Shown piece by piece: positions 6,495-13,218 of a stretch of 13,218 bases of DNA (positions are counted from its first letter, which is position 1; each line of letters begins with the position of its first letter). Below the pieces are notes generated by a model that worked only from the letters and a program-made list of their open reading frames with translations, was not told where the DNA came from and did not search any database. Both the position numbers and the translations under genes were made by a program. Origin of the DNA: a virus. Its lineage: Duplodnaviria; Heunggongvirae; Uroviricota; Caudoviricetes. The stretch lies in IMG/VR virus record IMGVR_UViG_2693429582_000029; one strand, written 5' to 3'.

Positions 6495-6543
6495 TGGAGA
6501 AACCAACCGACCTTGCAGGGTCGATATGATGAGGAGCAGCAAA

Positions 6544-6906
6544 ATGGCTAGCGAACGCAGTACCAACGTGCAGGAATTTATCGTAGAACTGGACGGCGGC
6601 GTATTTGAAACTAAACTCGGCGCAGTTCTCAGTGAAGTCGCTTCCGGTGTGATGAACACGAAAAACAAAGGTAAAGTCTCGGTCAATCTGGACATCGAAC
6701 CGTTTGATGAGAACCGTGTGAAAATCAAACACAAACTCTCATATGTTCGCCCGACTAACCGCGGGAAAATTTCTGAAGAAGACACCACCGAAACGCCGAT
6801 GTATGTCAATCGCGGTGGTCGCCTGACTATTCTGCAGGAAGACCAGGGACAGTTACTGACTCTTGCCGGTGAACCTGACGGAAAACTCCGTGCAGCAGGT
6901 CGTTAA
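6544..6906 (+). CDS. yfdP: YfdP-like prophage protein (120 aa), first gene of the early-left operon
   Basis: ATG at 6544 with RBS GAGGAG 7 nt upstream. The longer six-frame ORF (from a TTG at 6313) would run through the leader hairpins and is rejected. Symbol assigned by length and position relative to the yfdQ/yfdR-like genes, as in CPS-53, from memory. Confidence 0.65.
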   Translation: MASERSTNVQEFIVELDGGVFETKLGAVLSEVASGVMNTKNKGKVSVNLDIEPFDENRVKIKHKLSYVRPTNRGKISEEDTTETPMYVNRGGRLTILQEDQGQLLTLAGEPDGKLRAAGR

Positions 6907-6971
6907 TATCGTTTTTAATAAACTGATTATTTATCTCATCACTGAATATCTTTATATAGTGAGGACTTATT

Positions 6972-7796
6972 ATGTCTCAGAACTTAGACGCAACCGCAAT
7001 TAATCAAATCCATGCTCTTATTTCTGCTCAGGGTGTTAATGAAATTATCAGTAAGATTGGTGCCGATGCCGTGGCATTGCCTGAGAATTTCCGCATTCAT
7101 GATCTGGAAAAATTTAATTTAAATCGCTTCCGTTTCCGTGGTGCGCTTTCCACTGCCAGTATTGATGATTTTACCCGTTATTCTAAAGATCTTGCAGATG
7201 AAGGCACCCGCTGCTTTATCGATGCCGATAATATGCGAGCCGTCAGTGTGCTTAACCTGGGTACTATTGATGAACCAGGTCACGCAGATAACACCGCCAC
7301 TCTCAAACTGAAAAAGACAGCACCGTTCTCTGCCCTGTTGTCTGTTAACGGCGAGCGTAACTCCCAGAAGTCACTGGCAGAATGGATTGAAGACTGGGCC
7401 GACTACCTTGTGGGCTTTGATGCTAATGGTGACACCATTCAGGCAACAAAAGCGGCTGCGGCAGTCCGTAAAATAACGATTGAAGCAAACCAGACCGCTG
7501 ATTTTGAAGATAATGACTTCAGCGGCAAACGCTCCCTGATGGAATCTGTCGAAGCGAAGACCAAAGACATTATGCCAGTGGCATTTGAATTTAAATGCGT
7601 TCCGTTTGAAGGCCTGAAAGAACGTCCGTTTAAATTACGCCTCAGCATTATCACTGGCGATCGTCCTGTACTGGTTCTGCGCATTATTCAGCTGGAAGCA
7701 GTGCAGGAAGAAATGGCTAACGAATTTCGTGATCTGCTTGTTGAGAAATTCAAAGACAGCAAAGTAGAAACCTTTATTGGTACTTTTACCGCCTGA
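6972..7796 (+). CDS. yfdQ: YfdQ-like prophage protein (DUF2303-type), 274 aa
   Basis: Clean ATG at 6972 with GAGGA 7 nt upstream; uninterrupted 274-codon frame with non-biased composition. The length matches E. coli K-12 YfdQ as I recall it. Confidence 0.75.
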
Positions 7797-7808
7797 TTTC
7801 CTTACTGC

Positions 7809-7830
7809 AAATGCCCCTGCGGGGGCATTT
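7809..7830 (+). terminator. Candidate stem-loop terminator/attenuator between the yfdQ-like and yfdR-like genes
   Basis: AAATGCCCC / GGGGCATTT perfect 9 bp stem with loop TGCG, 13 nt after the yfdQ-like stop. The U-tract is short, so confidence is low. Confidence 0.35.
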
Positions 7831-7923
7831 ATGGAAACATAATTGACTCAATAATCGCCTGATGGCGAGGGTTTTCTTTAACCAAAATTCTGCGCGGTGC
7901 AGCGCATATACGTGGAGAACAAA

Positions 7924-8460
7924 ATGTCATTTATTAAAACTTTTTCCGGGAAGCATTTTTATTATGACAAGATAAATAAAGACGACATCGTGATTAACGA
8001 TATCGCGGTTTCCCTTTCAAATATCTGTCGCTTTGCAGGACATCTTTCACACTTCTACAGTGTCGCCCAGCATGCAGTGCTTTGCAGCCAACTGGTGCCG
8101 CAGGAATTTGCTTTTGAAGCGTTAATGCATGATGCAACAGAAACGTATTGCCAGGACATCCCCGCACCACTGAAACGACTTCTTCCTGACTATAAACGGA
8201 TGGAAGAAAAAATAGACGCCGTAATCCGTGAGAAATACGGGTTACCTCCTGTTATGAGCACGCCAGTGAAATATGCCGATCTCATTATGCTGGCAACCGA
8301 ACGCCGCGATCTCGGACTTGATGATGGCTCTTTCTGGCCTGTATTGGAAGGTATCCCGGCAACAGAGATGTTCAAAGTTATTCCACTGTCTCCAGGTCAT
8401 GCCTACGGGATGTTTATGGAACGTTTTAACGAGTTATCGGAGTTACGCAAATGCGCATGA
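7924..8460 (+). CDS. yfdR: HD-domain phosphohydrolase (YfdR-like 5'-nucleotidase family)
   Basis: 178 aa from the ATG at 7924 (RBS GGAGA); the track ORF starts at a GTG at 7897. Contains H...HD metal-binding motifs (SVAQHAV; LMHDATE) typical of HD-domain hydrolases. Length equals K-12 YfdR. Confidence 0.8.
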   Translation: MSFIKTFSGKHFYYDKINKDDIVINDIAVSLSNICRFAGHLSHFYSVAQHAVLCSQLVPQEFAFEALMHDATETYCQDIPAPLKRLLPDYKRMEEKIDAVIREKYGLPPVMSTPVKYADLIMLATERRDLGLDDGSFWPVLEGIPATEMFKVIPLSPGHAYGMFMERFNELSELRKCA

Positions 8461-8813
8461 ATGTTTTCGAAATGGAAGGGTTTCTTCGCGGGAAATGTGT
8501 ACCGCGAGATCTGAAAGTGAACGAAACAAATGCTGAGTACCTAGTACGTAAATTCGACGCGCTTGAAGCTAAATGTGCGGCACTGGAAAACAAAATAATA
8601 CCAGTGTCAGCTGAATTGCCACCTGCAAATGAAAGTGTTCTGTTATTTGATGCTAACGGAGAAGGCTGGCTGATTGGCTGGCGTTCTCTCTGGTACACCT
8701 GGGGACAAAAGGAAACCGGAGAATGGCAGTGGACATTTCAGGTCGGGGATCTTGAAAACGTCAATATCACTCACTGGGCAGTAATACCAAAGGCACCGGA
8801 GGCAGGGGCATAA
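8451..8813 (+). CDS. yfdS: YfdS-like prophage protein (120 aa)
   Basis: ATG at 8451 overlaps the end of the yfdR-like gene; an alternative ATG at 8457 forms an ATGA overlap. The stop overlaps the next start as TAATG. Confidence 0.65.
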   Translation: MRMNVFEMEGFLRGKCVPRDLKVNETNAEYLVRKFDALEAKCAALENKIIPVSAELPPANESVLLFDANGEGWLIGWRSLWYTWGQKETGEWQWTFQVGDLENVNITHWAVIPKAPEAGA

Positions 8814-9433
8814 TGACCACATTTACCGACAAAGAACTGATTAAAGAAATCAAAGAGCGCATAGGCAGTCTGGATGTGCGAGACAATATTGAGCGCCGTG
8901 CTTATGAAATTGCTTTGGTATCGCTGGAAGCAGAACCGGTGGCATGGCTGCATTCAGACAATGGCTTAGGTATTCCGGCAATAACACGGAGTAAAAACAT
9001 TGCTGACAGTTGGTTATCAAAGGGCTGGTATGTTCAGCCGCTATATATAGCCAAGCCAGTGCCGATGGTGCCAGATGTTCGTCCGTCTTTAAATAATGGC
9101 ATAGTCGGTTTTGATGAAGGCTGGAACGCCTGCCGCGCCGCCATGCTTCATGGTGCCGAACCTGTAAGCCAGACTTACAAGTTGAACGAGCTGTCGGGCA
9201 ACTCTCTGGTAACTCCGGATGGTTGGATAAGCTGTAGTGAGCGAATGCCGGACGATAAACAGTATGTTTGGTGTTGGGGTAAGTCTTACGGCTGGACTGA
9301 GTGCGATACCTTCGAAGGGTATTACGATTGGTCGAGAAACAAATGGTGGGCAGTTACTGACGATGGGGAAGAACCGGCATCGAAAGTAACCCACTGGATG
9401 CCGCTACCGGAGCCACCGCAGGAGGTGAAGTAA
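8813..9433 (+). CDS. DUF551-domain phage protein (YfdT-like)
   Basis: 206 aa; C-terminal WISCSERMPDD...THWMPLPEPP matches the DUF551 signature common in enterobacterial phages. TAATG overlaps at both ends. Confidence 0.7.
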   Translation: MTTFTDKELIKEIKERIGSLDVRDNIERRAYEIALVSLEAEPVAWLHSDNGLGIPAITRSKNIADSWLSKGWYVQPLYIAKPVPMVPDVRPSLNNGIVGFDEGWNACRAAMLHGAEPVSQTYKLNELSGNSLVTPDGWISCSERMPDDKQYVWCWGKSYGWTECDTFEGYYDWSRNKWWAVTDDGEEPASKVTHWMPLPEPPQEVK

Positions 9434-9627
9434 TGAACAACTTAATGACAACTAAACAAGTCGCCGACTTCTGTGGCGTTTCAGTATCGACCGTTCTTCG
9501 CTGGAACAGCGTAAACAGGAGAACTGGCCAGAAATACAGGCCAGACTTTCCAGATCCTGATATTAAATCATGCCCAAATAAATGGGCATCACGCAAGATT
9601 TACAAATTTGCGGGAGTTATTGAGTAA
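9433..9627 (+). CDS. Excisionase-like small HTH DNA-binding protein (Xis/AlpA/TorI class)
   Basis: 64 aa; TTKQVADFCGVSVSTVLRWN is the helix-turn-helix of excisionase-type proteins. GGAGG RBS 7 nt upstream. Last gene of the operon, facing the integrase. Confidence 0.6.
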   Translation: MNNLMTTKQVADFCGVSVSTVLRWNSVNRRTGQKYRPDFPDPDIKSCPNKWASRKIYKFAGVIE

Positions 9628-9734
9628 CGAGCATTAGCTCAGATGAGAGTTGGTACACCTATGGCACAGAGCTAAACCTGATCTGTTATATTCGCTCTGT
9701 GCCGGAAGTATGCCATATTTATTACATACAGTTG

Positions 9735-11867
9735 TCAATCTTTAAGACTAATTGTGATTGCATCTGGAAATCCAATTTGGCTATAGCACATAGTTTCGGT
9801 TATGAATAATTTTCTATCGATAAAATCAAGTACATCTTTTTTCGTGAGCCCCGTTAACATCGTCAATTTGTTAATTACATAATCATACCAATCATGGTGA
9901 AGCATGTTTATATACATGTTAATATCAACTGCATCTTTCCTCCATGAATTATTCGGTATCAAATCTTCAGATAAAAATCCTCTTATTAAATCGCTTGCAT
10001 AGGACATCCTAAGAAAAACAGAAAGAAAAATCCTTACATTAACATGTGTAAAATTTGTAGATAGCGTCGAAGGAAACTCGTAAAACCGGTAGATCAACCG
10101 ACTTACAAACACAGCAGAGTCTATCGCATTTACTGGCAGTAATGTTCCGATGACACTTAATGCACCACTTATAACGAAGCCATTAGCAACAGAGGCATGA
10201 GAACCGCTTAGGGCAGATGTTAAACATGCACTCAGAATTACGATAGGAGGAATTCTTGCTATTTTTCTCAAACTCCAAGTGTCCACTTTATCCTCACCTA
10301 TTATTAACCATCCATGACTCCCATTGCCATCATGGTTTCCATGACAATCCATAACAAGAATATGACCTTGATATTGATTTAGAGCATCAATAAACTCAGC
10401 TTTCGATCTAACATCAATAATCTCGCAATCAAGATCTGGCATCTGTTTTTTAAATATCTCAATTGCGTTCTCTAATATGAACTTTAAGTGATCATCAGGC
10501 TCAAAAGAACGTATAACTAAAACCTTTCTCAACTCAGATGCTTTTACTAAAACGCGCGGAAAAGCAGAGGCGCTCTGTAGAAGAACGTTACCAGGCGTAG
10601 CATTTATTCTTGATATCTCATGACTGAACATTATAGGTATGTTATTAAACCTAATCCAATCCAATGGTACATCACAAACAAAGGACAAATCGCTATAGTT
10701 TTTACTTATATATGTTCTCAACTTGCAACCAAGGGCTCTTCGAATAACAGTATTGAATGCTTTAGATTTAGTGATGAATGCTTCACTATTTATCCCAGAA
10801 GAAGTTGCAAGATCTTCAAGATTTTTCAAATAATTGGAGTAATGATTTATTGCATTTGGCAATCTTATTGCTGGGATTTTTTTATTTATGCTAAATAAAG
10901 TAATCGCAGCTGTTGTTAATCGCATTTCAGCGCGTCTTAGTGAGGTGAGGTAACGGAAAGCAGGACTTTTAAAAAGTTCTTTTCTATCTGAATTTATATC
11001 AAGTCTAATTCCAGAATAGCCAGGATTCCTCAACACTCCATCAATAAGGAATTTTTTCTCAATTGTGGATAAATTTTCCGTTATTAACTCATAAAAGTCA
11101 TTATTTTTATCATATAAAAAAGAGTGCATACCCGGAGCAAAAAGTAAGACTTCCGTTGGAAGTGGTATATCTAATTCCTTTAAACATTCGGTGTATGCAT
11201 CAACGCTATGAAGTATTATTTCTATAAACTCTCTTTTGCTACTACCATCTTTAATTCTTTTTGGTGGAGATAGCATATAGCCAAGTGATTCAATTAACAA
11301 CTCATTGGGTAGTGTTGAATTGTTAAGCGTCGATCTCCAAGGTGATTTATTAAATAAAGCCCCTCTTCGCTTCAACTTCGTTGATATTTTCTTTTCACTG
11401 TGATTTTTTCTTATTTTATCCTCAATGAATTTCAACCGAGAGAAGAGCACCTTATCAAATGAGTATATACTATTAATCTTATTAAGTGGTTGATCAGCGC
11501 GTTTAGAATTGCAACAAATTATAGGTGGTATAGCAAAATGTTTTTTTAAAGCACAAACATACGAAAAATCTTCTTTAGCACAAAAAATTAAGCAAAATGG
11601 CGTTTGATAAATATTTGGTATTTTTTCAAGATTTTCTTTAGATATTAAAAAAATAGGATTTAGCCCGCTTAGAGTAGGCTGAAAGTTATCATTTTCATTG
11701 ACAAAAATCTCACTAATTTCTTTTGGTGTTTTGGCCAATAAAAAAAGAATGTTGGATATCTCTGGGTTGAGGAGGCCAGTATCGAAACCTTGGATTATGG
11801 TTTGTTCCCCAGTAGTAGGCATGATTACAACTTTAAGTATCGCCCCGTGTTCCTGTAACAGTTCCAT
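9735..11867 (-). CDS. Large (~710 aa) protein with a C-terminal caspase-like CHAT protease domain and an uncharacterised ~430 aa N-terminal region; candidate defence/abortive-infection effector
   Basis: Uninterrupted 2.1 kb frame in very AT-rich DNA. First ATG at 11867 with an AGGA RBS; the six-frame ORF extends to a TTG at 11924. Caspase/CHAT catalytic signature: HILVMDCHGNHDGNGSHG (His codons at 10341-10343 and 10314-10316) followed about 30 residues later by PPIVILSACLTSA (Cys codon 10224-10226). Confidence 0.85.
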   Translation of the reverse strand: MELLQEHGAILKVVIMPTTGEQTIIQGFDTGLLNPEISNILFLLAKTPKEISEIFVNENDNFQPTLSGLNPIFLISKENLEKIPNIYQTPFCLIFCAKEDFSYVCALKKHFAIPPIICCNSKRADQPLNKINSIYSFDKVLFSRLKFIEDKIRKNHSEKKISTKLKRRGALFNKSPWRSTLNNSTLPNELLIESLGYMLSPPKRIKDGSSKREFIEIILHSVDAYTECLKELDIPLPTEVLLFAPGMHSFLYDKNNDFYELITENLSTIEKKFLIDGVLRNPGYSGIRLDINSDRKELFKSPAFRYLTSLRRAEMRLTTAAITLFSINKKIPAIRLPNAINHYSNYLKNLEDLATSSGINSEAFITKSKAFNTVIRRALGCKLRTYISKNYSDLSFVCDVPLDWIRFNNIPIMFSHEISRINATPGNVLLQSASAFPRVLVKASELRKVLVIRSFEPDDHLKFILENAIEIFKKQMPDLDCEIIDVRSKAEFIDALNQYQGHILVMDCHGNHDGNGSHGWLIIGEDKVDTWSLRKIARIPPIVILSACLTSALSGSHASVANGFVISGALSVIGTLLPVNAIDSAVFVSRLIYRFYEFPSTLSTNFTHVNVRIFLSVFLRMSYASDLIRGFLSEDLIPNNSWRKDAVDINMYINMLHHDWYDYVINKLTMLTGLTKKDVLDFIDRKLFITETMCYSQIGFPDAITISLKD

Positions 11868-11950
11868 CAAAAATCCTAATAAACAAATAAAAATGTTATA
11901 ATCAAAAACTGCAAGGATTAGCAAGCAATTCTTACAGTTTTAAGAAGGGG

Positions 11951-11976
11951 ATTATACCGCAATATGCATAATTGCG
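11951..11976 (-). promoter_or_regulatory. Candidate regulated promoter for the CHAT gene: perfect -10 TATAAT abutted by a palindrome
   Basis: Minus-strand TATAAT at 11956..11951, ~85 nt upstream of the ATG. Immediately upstream lies CGCAAT-N7-ATTGCG (11958-11976), where a -35 element would be expected. The nearest -35-like TTGCAT (11990..11985) is 28 nt away, too far for a standard sigma70 spacer. Confidence 0.35.
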
Positions 11977-12000
11977 TTCTGCCTATGCAAAATGTCAGTT

Positions 12001-13218
12001 CTAGTCTGAACAAGTACAAGTAACTATCGATTCAACCCTCTCCCACCACGCCTGGTAAGCTTTACGCTGTTCTTCTAAATAATCGCTCTTGTCATAAACC
12101 TGCCATACCCCTGGCAGTTTATGACCGAGCATTATTTCTGCAATATGAGGCGCAGTAAGATCAGAAAAGTTTGTTCGTGCTGTTCGTCTCAAATCATGAA
12201 GAGACCAATGAGGGAATTGATACCCCAAACGCCGCCATGCGTACTGCATTAAATTGTAAGGCAGCGACTGCAATGATGTCCGTCCAACGGGCTCCCTGCT
12301 TCCTTCCTTAGTAAAAAGCATATCGGAACCATTGTTCATAGAGATAACGTACTTTATAAGCTCTTCAACCGGTTCAATAATGGGGCGCTTTAGCGGTTCG
12401 CCTGTTATATCCCCTGTCTTATGTCGTTCTGGCGGTACAGTCCATACCTTATTTATGAAATCAAAATCATCCACCCTAGCAGTAATTAGCTCCGAACTAC
12501 GGCAACCAAAATGCAGTAATAGTTTAATGAAGGCCCGGTATTTGGGAACCATTCTAGAGCCATCGATCGCAGCATAAAGAATTTTAATTTCATCGTGTGT
12601 CAGAAACCGTTTCTTCTGACCTTTACGGATATCCATATCTTTACCCGTGATATCCGACAGCGGGCGAGTTTCAATAAGCTTTCTCTTATACGCCCAGACA
12701 TGGGCCTGCTTTGCGTTAATTAGCAATCGGTCTGCTATTGCTGGAGTCTTAGTGCTAAGAGGCTCCAAGACTTCTAACCAATCATGCAATGTAGCTGCAT
12801 CGTGAGGGATATTCCCGATTTTAGAGAACAGGTGCAGCTCAAACGAGCGGAGTATCTGTTCAGAACCCTTTTTATTTTTTACACAATATGCTTCATACCA
12901 GGCACGGATCACAGACTCTACCGTCATGGCTTCAGTAGCTTTTCGTTTTTCAGCCTGCTTGACCAATCGTGGATTACGGTTTGACTCGAGTTCACCACGG
13001 AGACGGATAACTTCTTCTCTGGCCTCTTTTAATCCAGTTGCCGGGTAAGTTCCGATATCAAGACGCTCACCTTTCCCTGCCCATTGATAACGATATTGGA
13101 ACACTACGCGACCTTTCGGTGATACTCTGACAGACAGACCATCACGATCGGATTTAACCAAAACCTTATCACGTTCCTTTCCAACGACTGAACGCAACCA
13201 CGCATCAGACAGCGCCAT
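12001..13218 (-). CDS. int: P4-type tyrosine site-specific integrase
   Basis: 405 aa, with the ATG exactly at the window's last three bases. N-terminal arm-binding region (MALSDAWLRSVVGKERDKVLVKSDRDGLSVRVSPKGRVVFQYRYQW); C-terminal catalytic motifs HDLRRTARTNF (H-x-x-R) and LGHKLPGVWQVYDKSDY (catalytic Tyr). Confidence 0.9.
   Translation of the reverse strand: MALSDAWLRSVVGKERDKVLVKSDRDGLSVRVSPKGRVVFQYRYQWAGKGERLDIGTYPATGLKEAREEVIRLRGELESNRNPRLVKQAEKRKATEAMTVESVIRAWYEAYCVKNKKGSEQILRSFELHLFSKIGNIPHDAATLHDWLEVLEPLSTKTPAIADRLLINAKQAHVWAYKRKLIETRPLSDITGKDMDIRKGQKKRFLTHDEIKILYAAIDGSRMVPKYRAFIKLLLHFGCRSSELITARVDDFDFINKVWTVPPERHKTGDITGEPLKRPIIEPVEELIKYVISMNNGSDMLFTKEGSREPVGRTSLQSLPYNLMQYAWRRLGYQFPHWSLHDLRRTARTNFSDLTAPHIAEIMLGHKLPGVWQVYDKSDYLEEQRKAYQAWWERVESIVTCTCSD

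Follow-up and report, generated by a model that had tools for sequence, protein, structure and literature searches.

A CHAT Protease Gene between the Integrase and Excisionase-Like Genes of a Lambdoid Escherichia coli Prophage as the Probable bovA of the Borvo Defense System

Introduction

Borvo is a defense system composed of a single gene, bovA (Millman et al. 2022). In the preprint of that study, Borvo is found in the supplementary tables only and not in the body text. Table S2 lists SG178 "Borvo" as verified, with a 2569-bp insert and a "CHAT protease" of 710 amino acids (IMG gene 2646127138), and Table S22 lists the BovA of "Escherichia coli 403116" as "Verified". According to this material, the SG178 fragment, expressed "under native promoter", protects E. 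coli MG1655 from phages. The present work concerns a gene on the minus strand at positions 9735..11867 of a viral DNA stretch of 13,218 nucleotides (IMG/VR record IMGVR_UViG_2693429582_000029, Caudoviricetes), which is called the window below. With a probability of roughly 93%, this gene is bovA, which makes up the whole of Borvo, and is carried as cargo between the integrase gene (int) and an excisionase-like gene (xis) in an E. coli prophage that is lambdoid and resembles phage cdtI; its product would carry a C-terminal CHAT protease (dyad H509/C548) that is freed when a DNA polymerase is sensed.

The response of Borvo is abortive infection, triggered by the phage DNA polymerase (10.1101/2022.08.27.505566). 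Missense mutations that alter the 3'-5' proofreading cleft of this enzyme allow the phages T5, SECphi4 and SECphi18 to escape, and the wild-type DNA polymerase of SECphi4 is toxic only in cells containing Borvo (10.1101/2022.08.27.505566). Later papers call the mechanism poorly understood and give Borvo no further description than that of a CHAT-protease system. A search of the 2025-2026 literature found no paper on the mechanism or structure of Borvo, and the combination of BovA with CHAT yielded only unrelated papers in the literature searched.

Identity of the Gene

The predicted protein matches the PADLOC model of BovA (PDLC03831) over its full length, with an E-value of 5.5e-241 and 800.1 bits (residues 4-709 against positions 3-715 of a profile of 720). 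The resemblance extends to the DNA of the verified clone. Window 12001..11603 (minus strand) is 100% identical to the first 399 nucleotides of the SG178 insert, the span covered by the comparison with the accessible insert sequence. At the protein level, compared over residues 1-399 of 710 of the accessible verified BovA, 398 of the 399 residues are the same; the one change is a leucine at position 126 of the verified protein that is a glutamine in the window (Q126). Because the 399 nucleotides match the window from position 12001 onwards, the SG178 clone opens with the final base of the int stop codon, and an insert of 2569 bp would end at window position 9433, the start of the xis-like open reading frame (ORF). 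The architecture is also common to the window and the verified Borvo: the int stop, an upstream region of 133 nucleotides and then the gene for a protein of 710 amino acids. Among the E. coli alleles of the same 90% cluster (508 members), the full-length ones differ from the window BovA by 3-6 residues.

The window therefore holds not merely a member of the family but the same locus that the type Borvo system was cloned from. By 2022, Borvo had already been named, cloned from this locus and shown to be defensive in E. coli; the report of its trigger dates from 2022-23. An earlier note on this DNA, made from the letters alone, had taken the gene for an undescribed antiphage system belonging to no named one; the PADLOC match and the near-identity to the verified SG178 clone, upstream region included, contradict this. 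The same note had, on the other hand, inferred a single-protein CHAT-protease system of the abortive-infection type that a prophage carries as cargo beside int, and here the Borvo literature agrees. Of the defense-finder searches that it suggested, the one with PADLOC gave the full-length BovA match described above, and the cloning that it proposed, with the native upstream region and a panel of coliphages, had already been done by Millman et al. (2022).

In the list of ORFs, the minus-strand frame spans 9735..11924 with a TTG start. The first ATG, at 11867, gives the 710 amino acids of BovA with the N-terminus MELLQEHG, so that the coding sequence (CDS) with its stop codon, which is the entire Borvo system, occupies 9735..11867. 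RefSeq annotates the same coordinates, in an E. coli genome that is 100% identical, for WP_044722728.1, a "CHAT domain-containing protein". The GC content of bovA is 0.341, lower than that of int (0.451) and of window 1..9432 (0.491). As 2.1 kb are open in DNA of 34% GC and the product is conserved in 33 other proteins (30-85% identity), the frame is far beyond chance. The ORF, its composition and its neighbors confirm the initial description of an AT-rich ORF of about 2.1 kb and 710 amino acids, on the int strand and between a xis-like gene and the integrase.

The 133 nucleotides upstream of bovA (11868..12000, minus strand; GC 0.31) separate its start from the stop of int. They are identical to the 5' end of the cloned fragment and are presumed to hold the native promoter. 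A consensus sigma-70 scan gave no site in them, and no convincing terminator was found when the DNA 3' of bovA was scanned.

Protease Region and Catalytic Residues

The C-terminal part of BovA (residues ~393-710; 9738..10691, minus strand) is a separase/Csx29-like CHAT protease region. Within it, residues 488-592 (10092..10406, minus strand) match Pfam CHAT (PF12770) with an E-value of 5.5e-6 and 26.5 bits, the gathering cut-off being 24. An alignment of 33 family sequences was used for conservation and also as the input for an AlphaFold2 model, which reached a predicted local distance difference test score (pLDDT) of 84.7 and a predicted template modeling score (pTM) of 0.85.

The best structural match is Csx29 (7y9x_B; score 13.7, extent 296), followed by a SAVED-CHAT protein (8tl0; 12.7, 196), separases (10.7-12.1, about 290-305) and the CHAT anti-sigma protein DdvA (11.1, 278). 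Gingipains (9.5-10.3, 265-274) come next, and then caspases, metacaspases, legumain and clostripain (7.5-8.4, about 150-170). The C-terminal region of BovA has the caspase-hemoglobinase fold. The CHAT fold claimed in the earlier note is thus borne out, by the PF12770 match above the cut-off as well as by the CHAT and caspase structures matched. A sequence search of the PDB with the family profile found no structure of BovA, only a marginal match to Csx29 (8d9h, E 0.0097), in which the cysteine segment of BovA aligns to "VILGAC".

The residues D507, C508, H509, G510, H512, G514, L545, S546, A547, C548 and T550 are invariant in the alignment. The motif DCHG (507-510) is the same in 33/33 sequences and contains H509, the probable catalytic histidine (codon 10341..10343, minus strand). 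The stretch L545-C548 of the ILSAC motif is equally invariant (33/33) and ends in C548, the probable catalytic cysteine (codon 10224..10226, minus strand). In the model, H509 and G510 stand directly after the beta-strand 503-508, and C548 is at the end of the strand 542-549, which is the clan-CD arrangement. The histidine first proposed as catalytic was another one, H518 of the GSHG motif (codon 10314..10316, minus strand). This position is not conserved: across the 33 sequences, it is occupied by N (15), H (7), P (7), S (2), G (1) or T (1). It also lies in a loop of low confidence (pLDDT 56 for residues 511-520).

Since H509 and C548 are both invariant and located at strand ends, while H518 is variable, the catalytic dyad is most likely H509/C548, as judged from the alignment and the model. 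The motifs DCHG, GSHG (516-519) and IVILSAC (542-548) had been placed correctly in the initial description, and its codons 10314-10316 and 10224-10226 do correspond to H518 and C548. From the dyad that it drew from them, the cysteine stands and the histidine has to be replaced by H509. The histidine mutant that it proposed, at H518, would probably be uninformative; H509 and C548 are the pair to mutate.

N-Terminal Region

The first 392 residues (10692..11867, minus strand) form the presumed sensor or regulatory part. A Pfam scan of BovA at E<=10 returned CHAT as the sole match and none in the N-terminal region, so that the statement that the first ~430 amino acids match nothing known was essentially correct. 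The ~390 N-terminal residues probably comprise an alpha/beta domain of the CheY/flavodoxin kind and, behind it, a region that would have no counterpart among solved structures. This whole part is presumed to act as the sensor or gate of the protease.

Genomic Context and Distribution

The gene upstream of bovA, in the same orientation, encodes a tyrosine integrase (12001..13218, minus strand; Pfam Phage_integrase, Arm-DNA-bind_3 and Phage_int_M; RefSeq WP_001218283.1). In the 100%-identical genome, this prophage integrase gene abuts the host gene yjjG. Downstream, an ORF of 64 amino acids (9433..9627, plus strand) is excisionase-like: it has only sub-threshold matches, to HTH_17, MerR and HTH_23, and its counterpart in phage cdtI (orf34), which is identical, is annotated as "excisionase". 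The last bases of the DUF551 gene overlap with the start codon of this ORF, and it is unannotated in the 100%-identical RefSeq genome. The placement of the CHAT gene between xis and int given in the earlier note holds for the position; the xis-like ORF is, however, on the opposite strand and convergent with bovA, which differs from the picture drawn there. BovA is a stand-alone gene: its neighbors are int, the xis-like ORF and DUF551, none of which is a defense gene.

Elsewhere, the window consists of a lambdoid early region, with a cI-like S24 repressor, a cro-like helix-turn-helix protein, a cII-like protein, YfdQ/YfdR/DUF551, a Dam-like methylase and RusA. The Dam-like N6-adenine methyltransferase of the phage (988-1674, minus strand) matches PADLOC models of Type II methyltransferases strongly (E 1e-158). 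It was the only match when ten other ORFs of the window were run through PADLOC, and no cognate restriction enzyme was found nearby; the prophage probably has it as an orphan methylase with an anti-restriction role. Start-site annotation is inconsistent at 3102-4250 (minus strand). The window has one ORF of 382 amino acids there, RefSeq splits the identical DNA into a Rha family regulator of 296 amino acids and an overlapping DUF4222 protein of 59, and the counterpart in phage cdtI is annotated at full length (orf44, 1149 nucleotides).

Of 5426 complete E. coli genomes, 32 contain bovA (at least 99% nucleotide identity), always on the chromosome. Phage Ayreon and the inducible phage cdtI have the int-bovA-xis module at 99% identity; in cdtI, bovA is orf33 and its product a "hypothetical protein". 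The same protein is found as PHROG 34827, a family with no function assigned in that database. Phage cdtI (NC_009514.1) also encodes cdtABC, cif and an NleH-like effector. More distant homologs (33 proteins, 30-85% identity) were found in Pantoea, Dickeya, Proteus, Serratia and metagenomes. The one in Pantoea is a stand-alone cargo gene between the tra genes of a conjugative element, and one on a metagenome contig adjoins an SMC/AAA_23 protein, an SMC-like ATPase; the neighbors of these two homologs are unrelated. This distribution fits a mobile and self-sufficient defense gene.

The slot occupied by bovA (window 9628..12000) holds other genes in related phages. Stx2c-converting phages share the integrase (96% at the nucleotide level) and the xis-like ORF (92%), but carry a different cargo between them: an ORF of 517 amino acids on the other strand with respect to bovA (722-2275, plus strand, of locus L008, from LC727876.1). 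The int-xis slot is a site of cargo exchange, because phages with a related int and xis have this unrelated ORF at the same place. The 517-amino-acid protein has a hydrophobic N-terminus and is probably membrane-anchored. Its sole match is phrog_13820, of unknown function (E 1e-39), and neither Pfam nor PADLOC gave a match. We regard it as a possible, although doubtful, candidate for an undescribed defense or exclusion gene; in any case, the slot of the Stx2c phages points to a different, uncharacterized cargo.

Defense Function and Alternative Explanations

A mechanism can be proposed in which the N-terminal region of BovA would sense the phage DNA polymerase or a product of the polymerase. 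Sensing would free the C-terminal H509/C548 protease, and the freed protease would cleave a target, leading to the growth arrest of the infected cell. A carrier prophage without an annotated DNA polymerase would not trigger Borvo under this scheme; polymerase-encoding lytic phages would. The 60 CDS of phage cdtI include none annotated as a DNA polymerase, and for this reason the carrier prophage is not expected to set off its own Borvo. The int-xis slot of cdtI-like prophages that lack a polymerase of their own is the natural setting of the type Borvo gene, which fits a suicide system that senses polymerases and spares its carrier.

Several points weigh against this reading. The comparison with the verified protein spans residues 1-399, and the identity of the C-terminal 311 amino acids is suggested by the tightness of the E. 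coli cluster; in this part, judging by the alleles of the cluster, the two proteins probably have 1-3 further conservative differences, for example I503/V and I613/L. No tests of catalytic mutants of BovA were found in the literature searched, which for Millman et al. comprises the supplementary tables of the preprint. Whether the polymerase is sensed directly or indirectly was left open by the authors who identified it as the trigger (10.1101/2022.08.27.505566). The published 2569-bp clone wholly contains the antisense xis-like ORF, without the upstream signals of the latter; it is because this ORF has no expression signals of its own in the clone that Borvo counts as a single gene. Finally, the published functional data were obtained with the near-identical L126 allele, not with the Q126 allele of the window. 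The Q126 codon (CAA; 11490..11492, minus strand) stands at a position that is L, I, V or A in 32/32 other aligned family members. Since this position is hydrophobic in all of these, the activity of the window allele is not guaranteed: the change is non-conservative and may be neutral, weaken the protein or alter its specificity.

It is even conceivable that the bovA of the window is functionally impaired or altered in specificity through L126Q, and perhaps decaying as it is in other E. coli lineages. Borvo is decaying in some pathogenic E. coli lineages. In E. coli O121, the gene is one base shorter (2132 nucleotides) and annotated as two pieces of 260 and 396 amino acids (1501-3632 of locus L006, from O121 RM8352; also in O121 GTVSS-020), and an IS600 element disrupts it in one strain. 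Because of these frameshifted and interrupted alleles, bovA is considered dispensable and often lost, and together with the polar residue at position 126 they speak for an impaired gene in the window as well. The frame of the window bovA is intact, however, and all the other invariant residues of the family are kept. The exact window protein is moreover present on 67 contigs in public data, which indicates a circulating allele, and a lone substitution on the surface or in an edge strand is often neutral. An impaired or altered allele is therefore judged unlikely. The natural L126Q allele is flagged here, as are the frameshifted or disrupted ones in pathogenic E. coli lineages.

The carriers of bovA could suggest another role. 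The gene adjoins int and xis, which are lysogeny control genes, and some of its carriers are toxin-converting: phage cdtI encodes the cytolethal distending toxin (CDT), Cif and the NleH-like effector. The gene could thus be a prophage "moron", with a protease that serves the phage or the virulence of the host, for instance by processing a regulator of the phage or the host, or as a partner of cdt or cif. This is very improbable, as the near-identical clone protects MG1655 outside the prophage context, with a toxicity that depends on the trigger; homologs are also found beyond prophages, in conjugative elements and in neighborhoods resembling defense islands, and BovA has no match to a signal peptide or a secretion-associated domain. 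Still harder to credit is that BovA supplies the protease for a CHAT system of several components (type III-E Craspase, the SAVED-CHAT branch of the cyclic oligonucleotide-based antiphage signaling systems (CBASS), or a gasdermin-activating protease) whose partners are located elsewhere. Its best structural matches are indeed Csx29 and SAVED-CHAT, and NCBIfam gives a weak Csx29 match (E 0.01). This match scores 14.7 bits, though, where the cut-off is 300, no TPR, SAVED, gasdermin or cyclase domain was found in BovA or its neighbors, and bovA works alone in the published clone. An autonomous Borvo gene accounts for these observations best.

Comparison with Known Systems

Membership in three known kinds of CHAT system was considered. 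A type III-E Craspase was rejected on the Csx29 score given above, on the lack of a TPR match and on the absence of cas genes from the window and 26 kb of the matching genome. CBASS of the SAVED-CHAT kind was rejected because BovA contains no SAVED domain and no cyclase is found among its neighbors, and a gasdermin system because neither BovA nor the neighbors contain a gasdermin domain.

The differences from these proteins are clear. In comparison with Csx29, the TPR-CHAT protein of Craspase, BovA lacks the TPR repeats, the Cas7-11 partner and the Csx30/31 substrate genes. The triggers are also different, Csx29 being activated by the target RNA of its CRISPR RNA and Borvo by a phage DNA polymerase. 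The CBASS SAVED-CHAT proteins (Cap4-like protease effectors) carry a SAVED sensor and have a neighboring cGAS/DncV-like nucleotidyltransferase; BovA has neither, and its N-terminus is probably CheY/flavodoxin-like instead. Separase, the eukaryotic protease of the CHAT clade, is only 10-12% identical in sequence, and BovA lacks both a helical ARM/TPR solenoid and a partner resembling securin.

A functional analog among the single-protein abortive proteases is Lit of the e14 prophage. Like BovA, Lit is a single protease encoded by a prophage that aborts infection upon a specific phage protein. Their folds, chemistry and triggers differ: Lit cleaves EF-Tu as a zinc metalloprotease and responds to the Gol peptide of T4, whereas BovA is a Cys/His protease of clan CD whose trigger is a DNA polymerase. 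The same comparison with Lit appears in a preprint (10.1101/2024.10.26.620412). From Borvo itself, the BovA of the window differs in nothing categorical, the known change being Q126 in place of L126.

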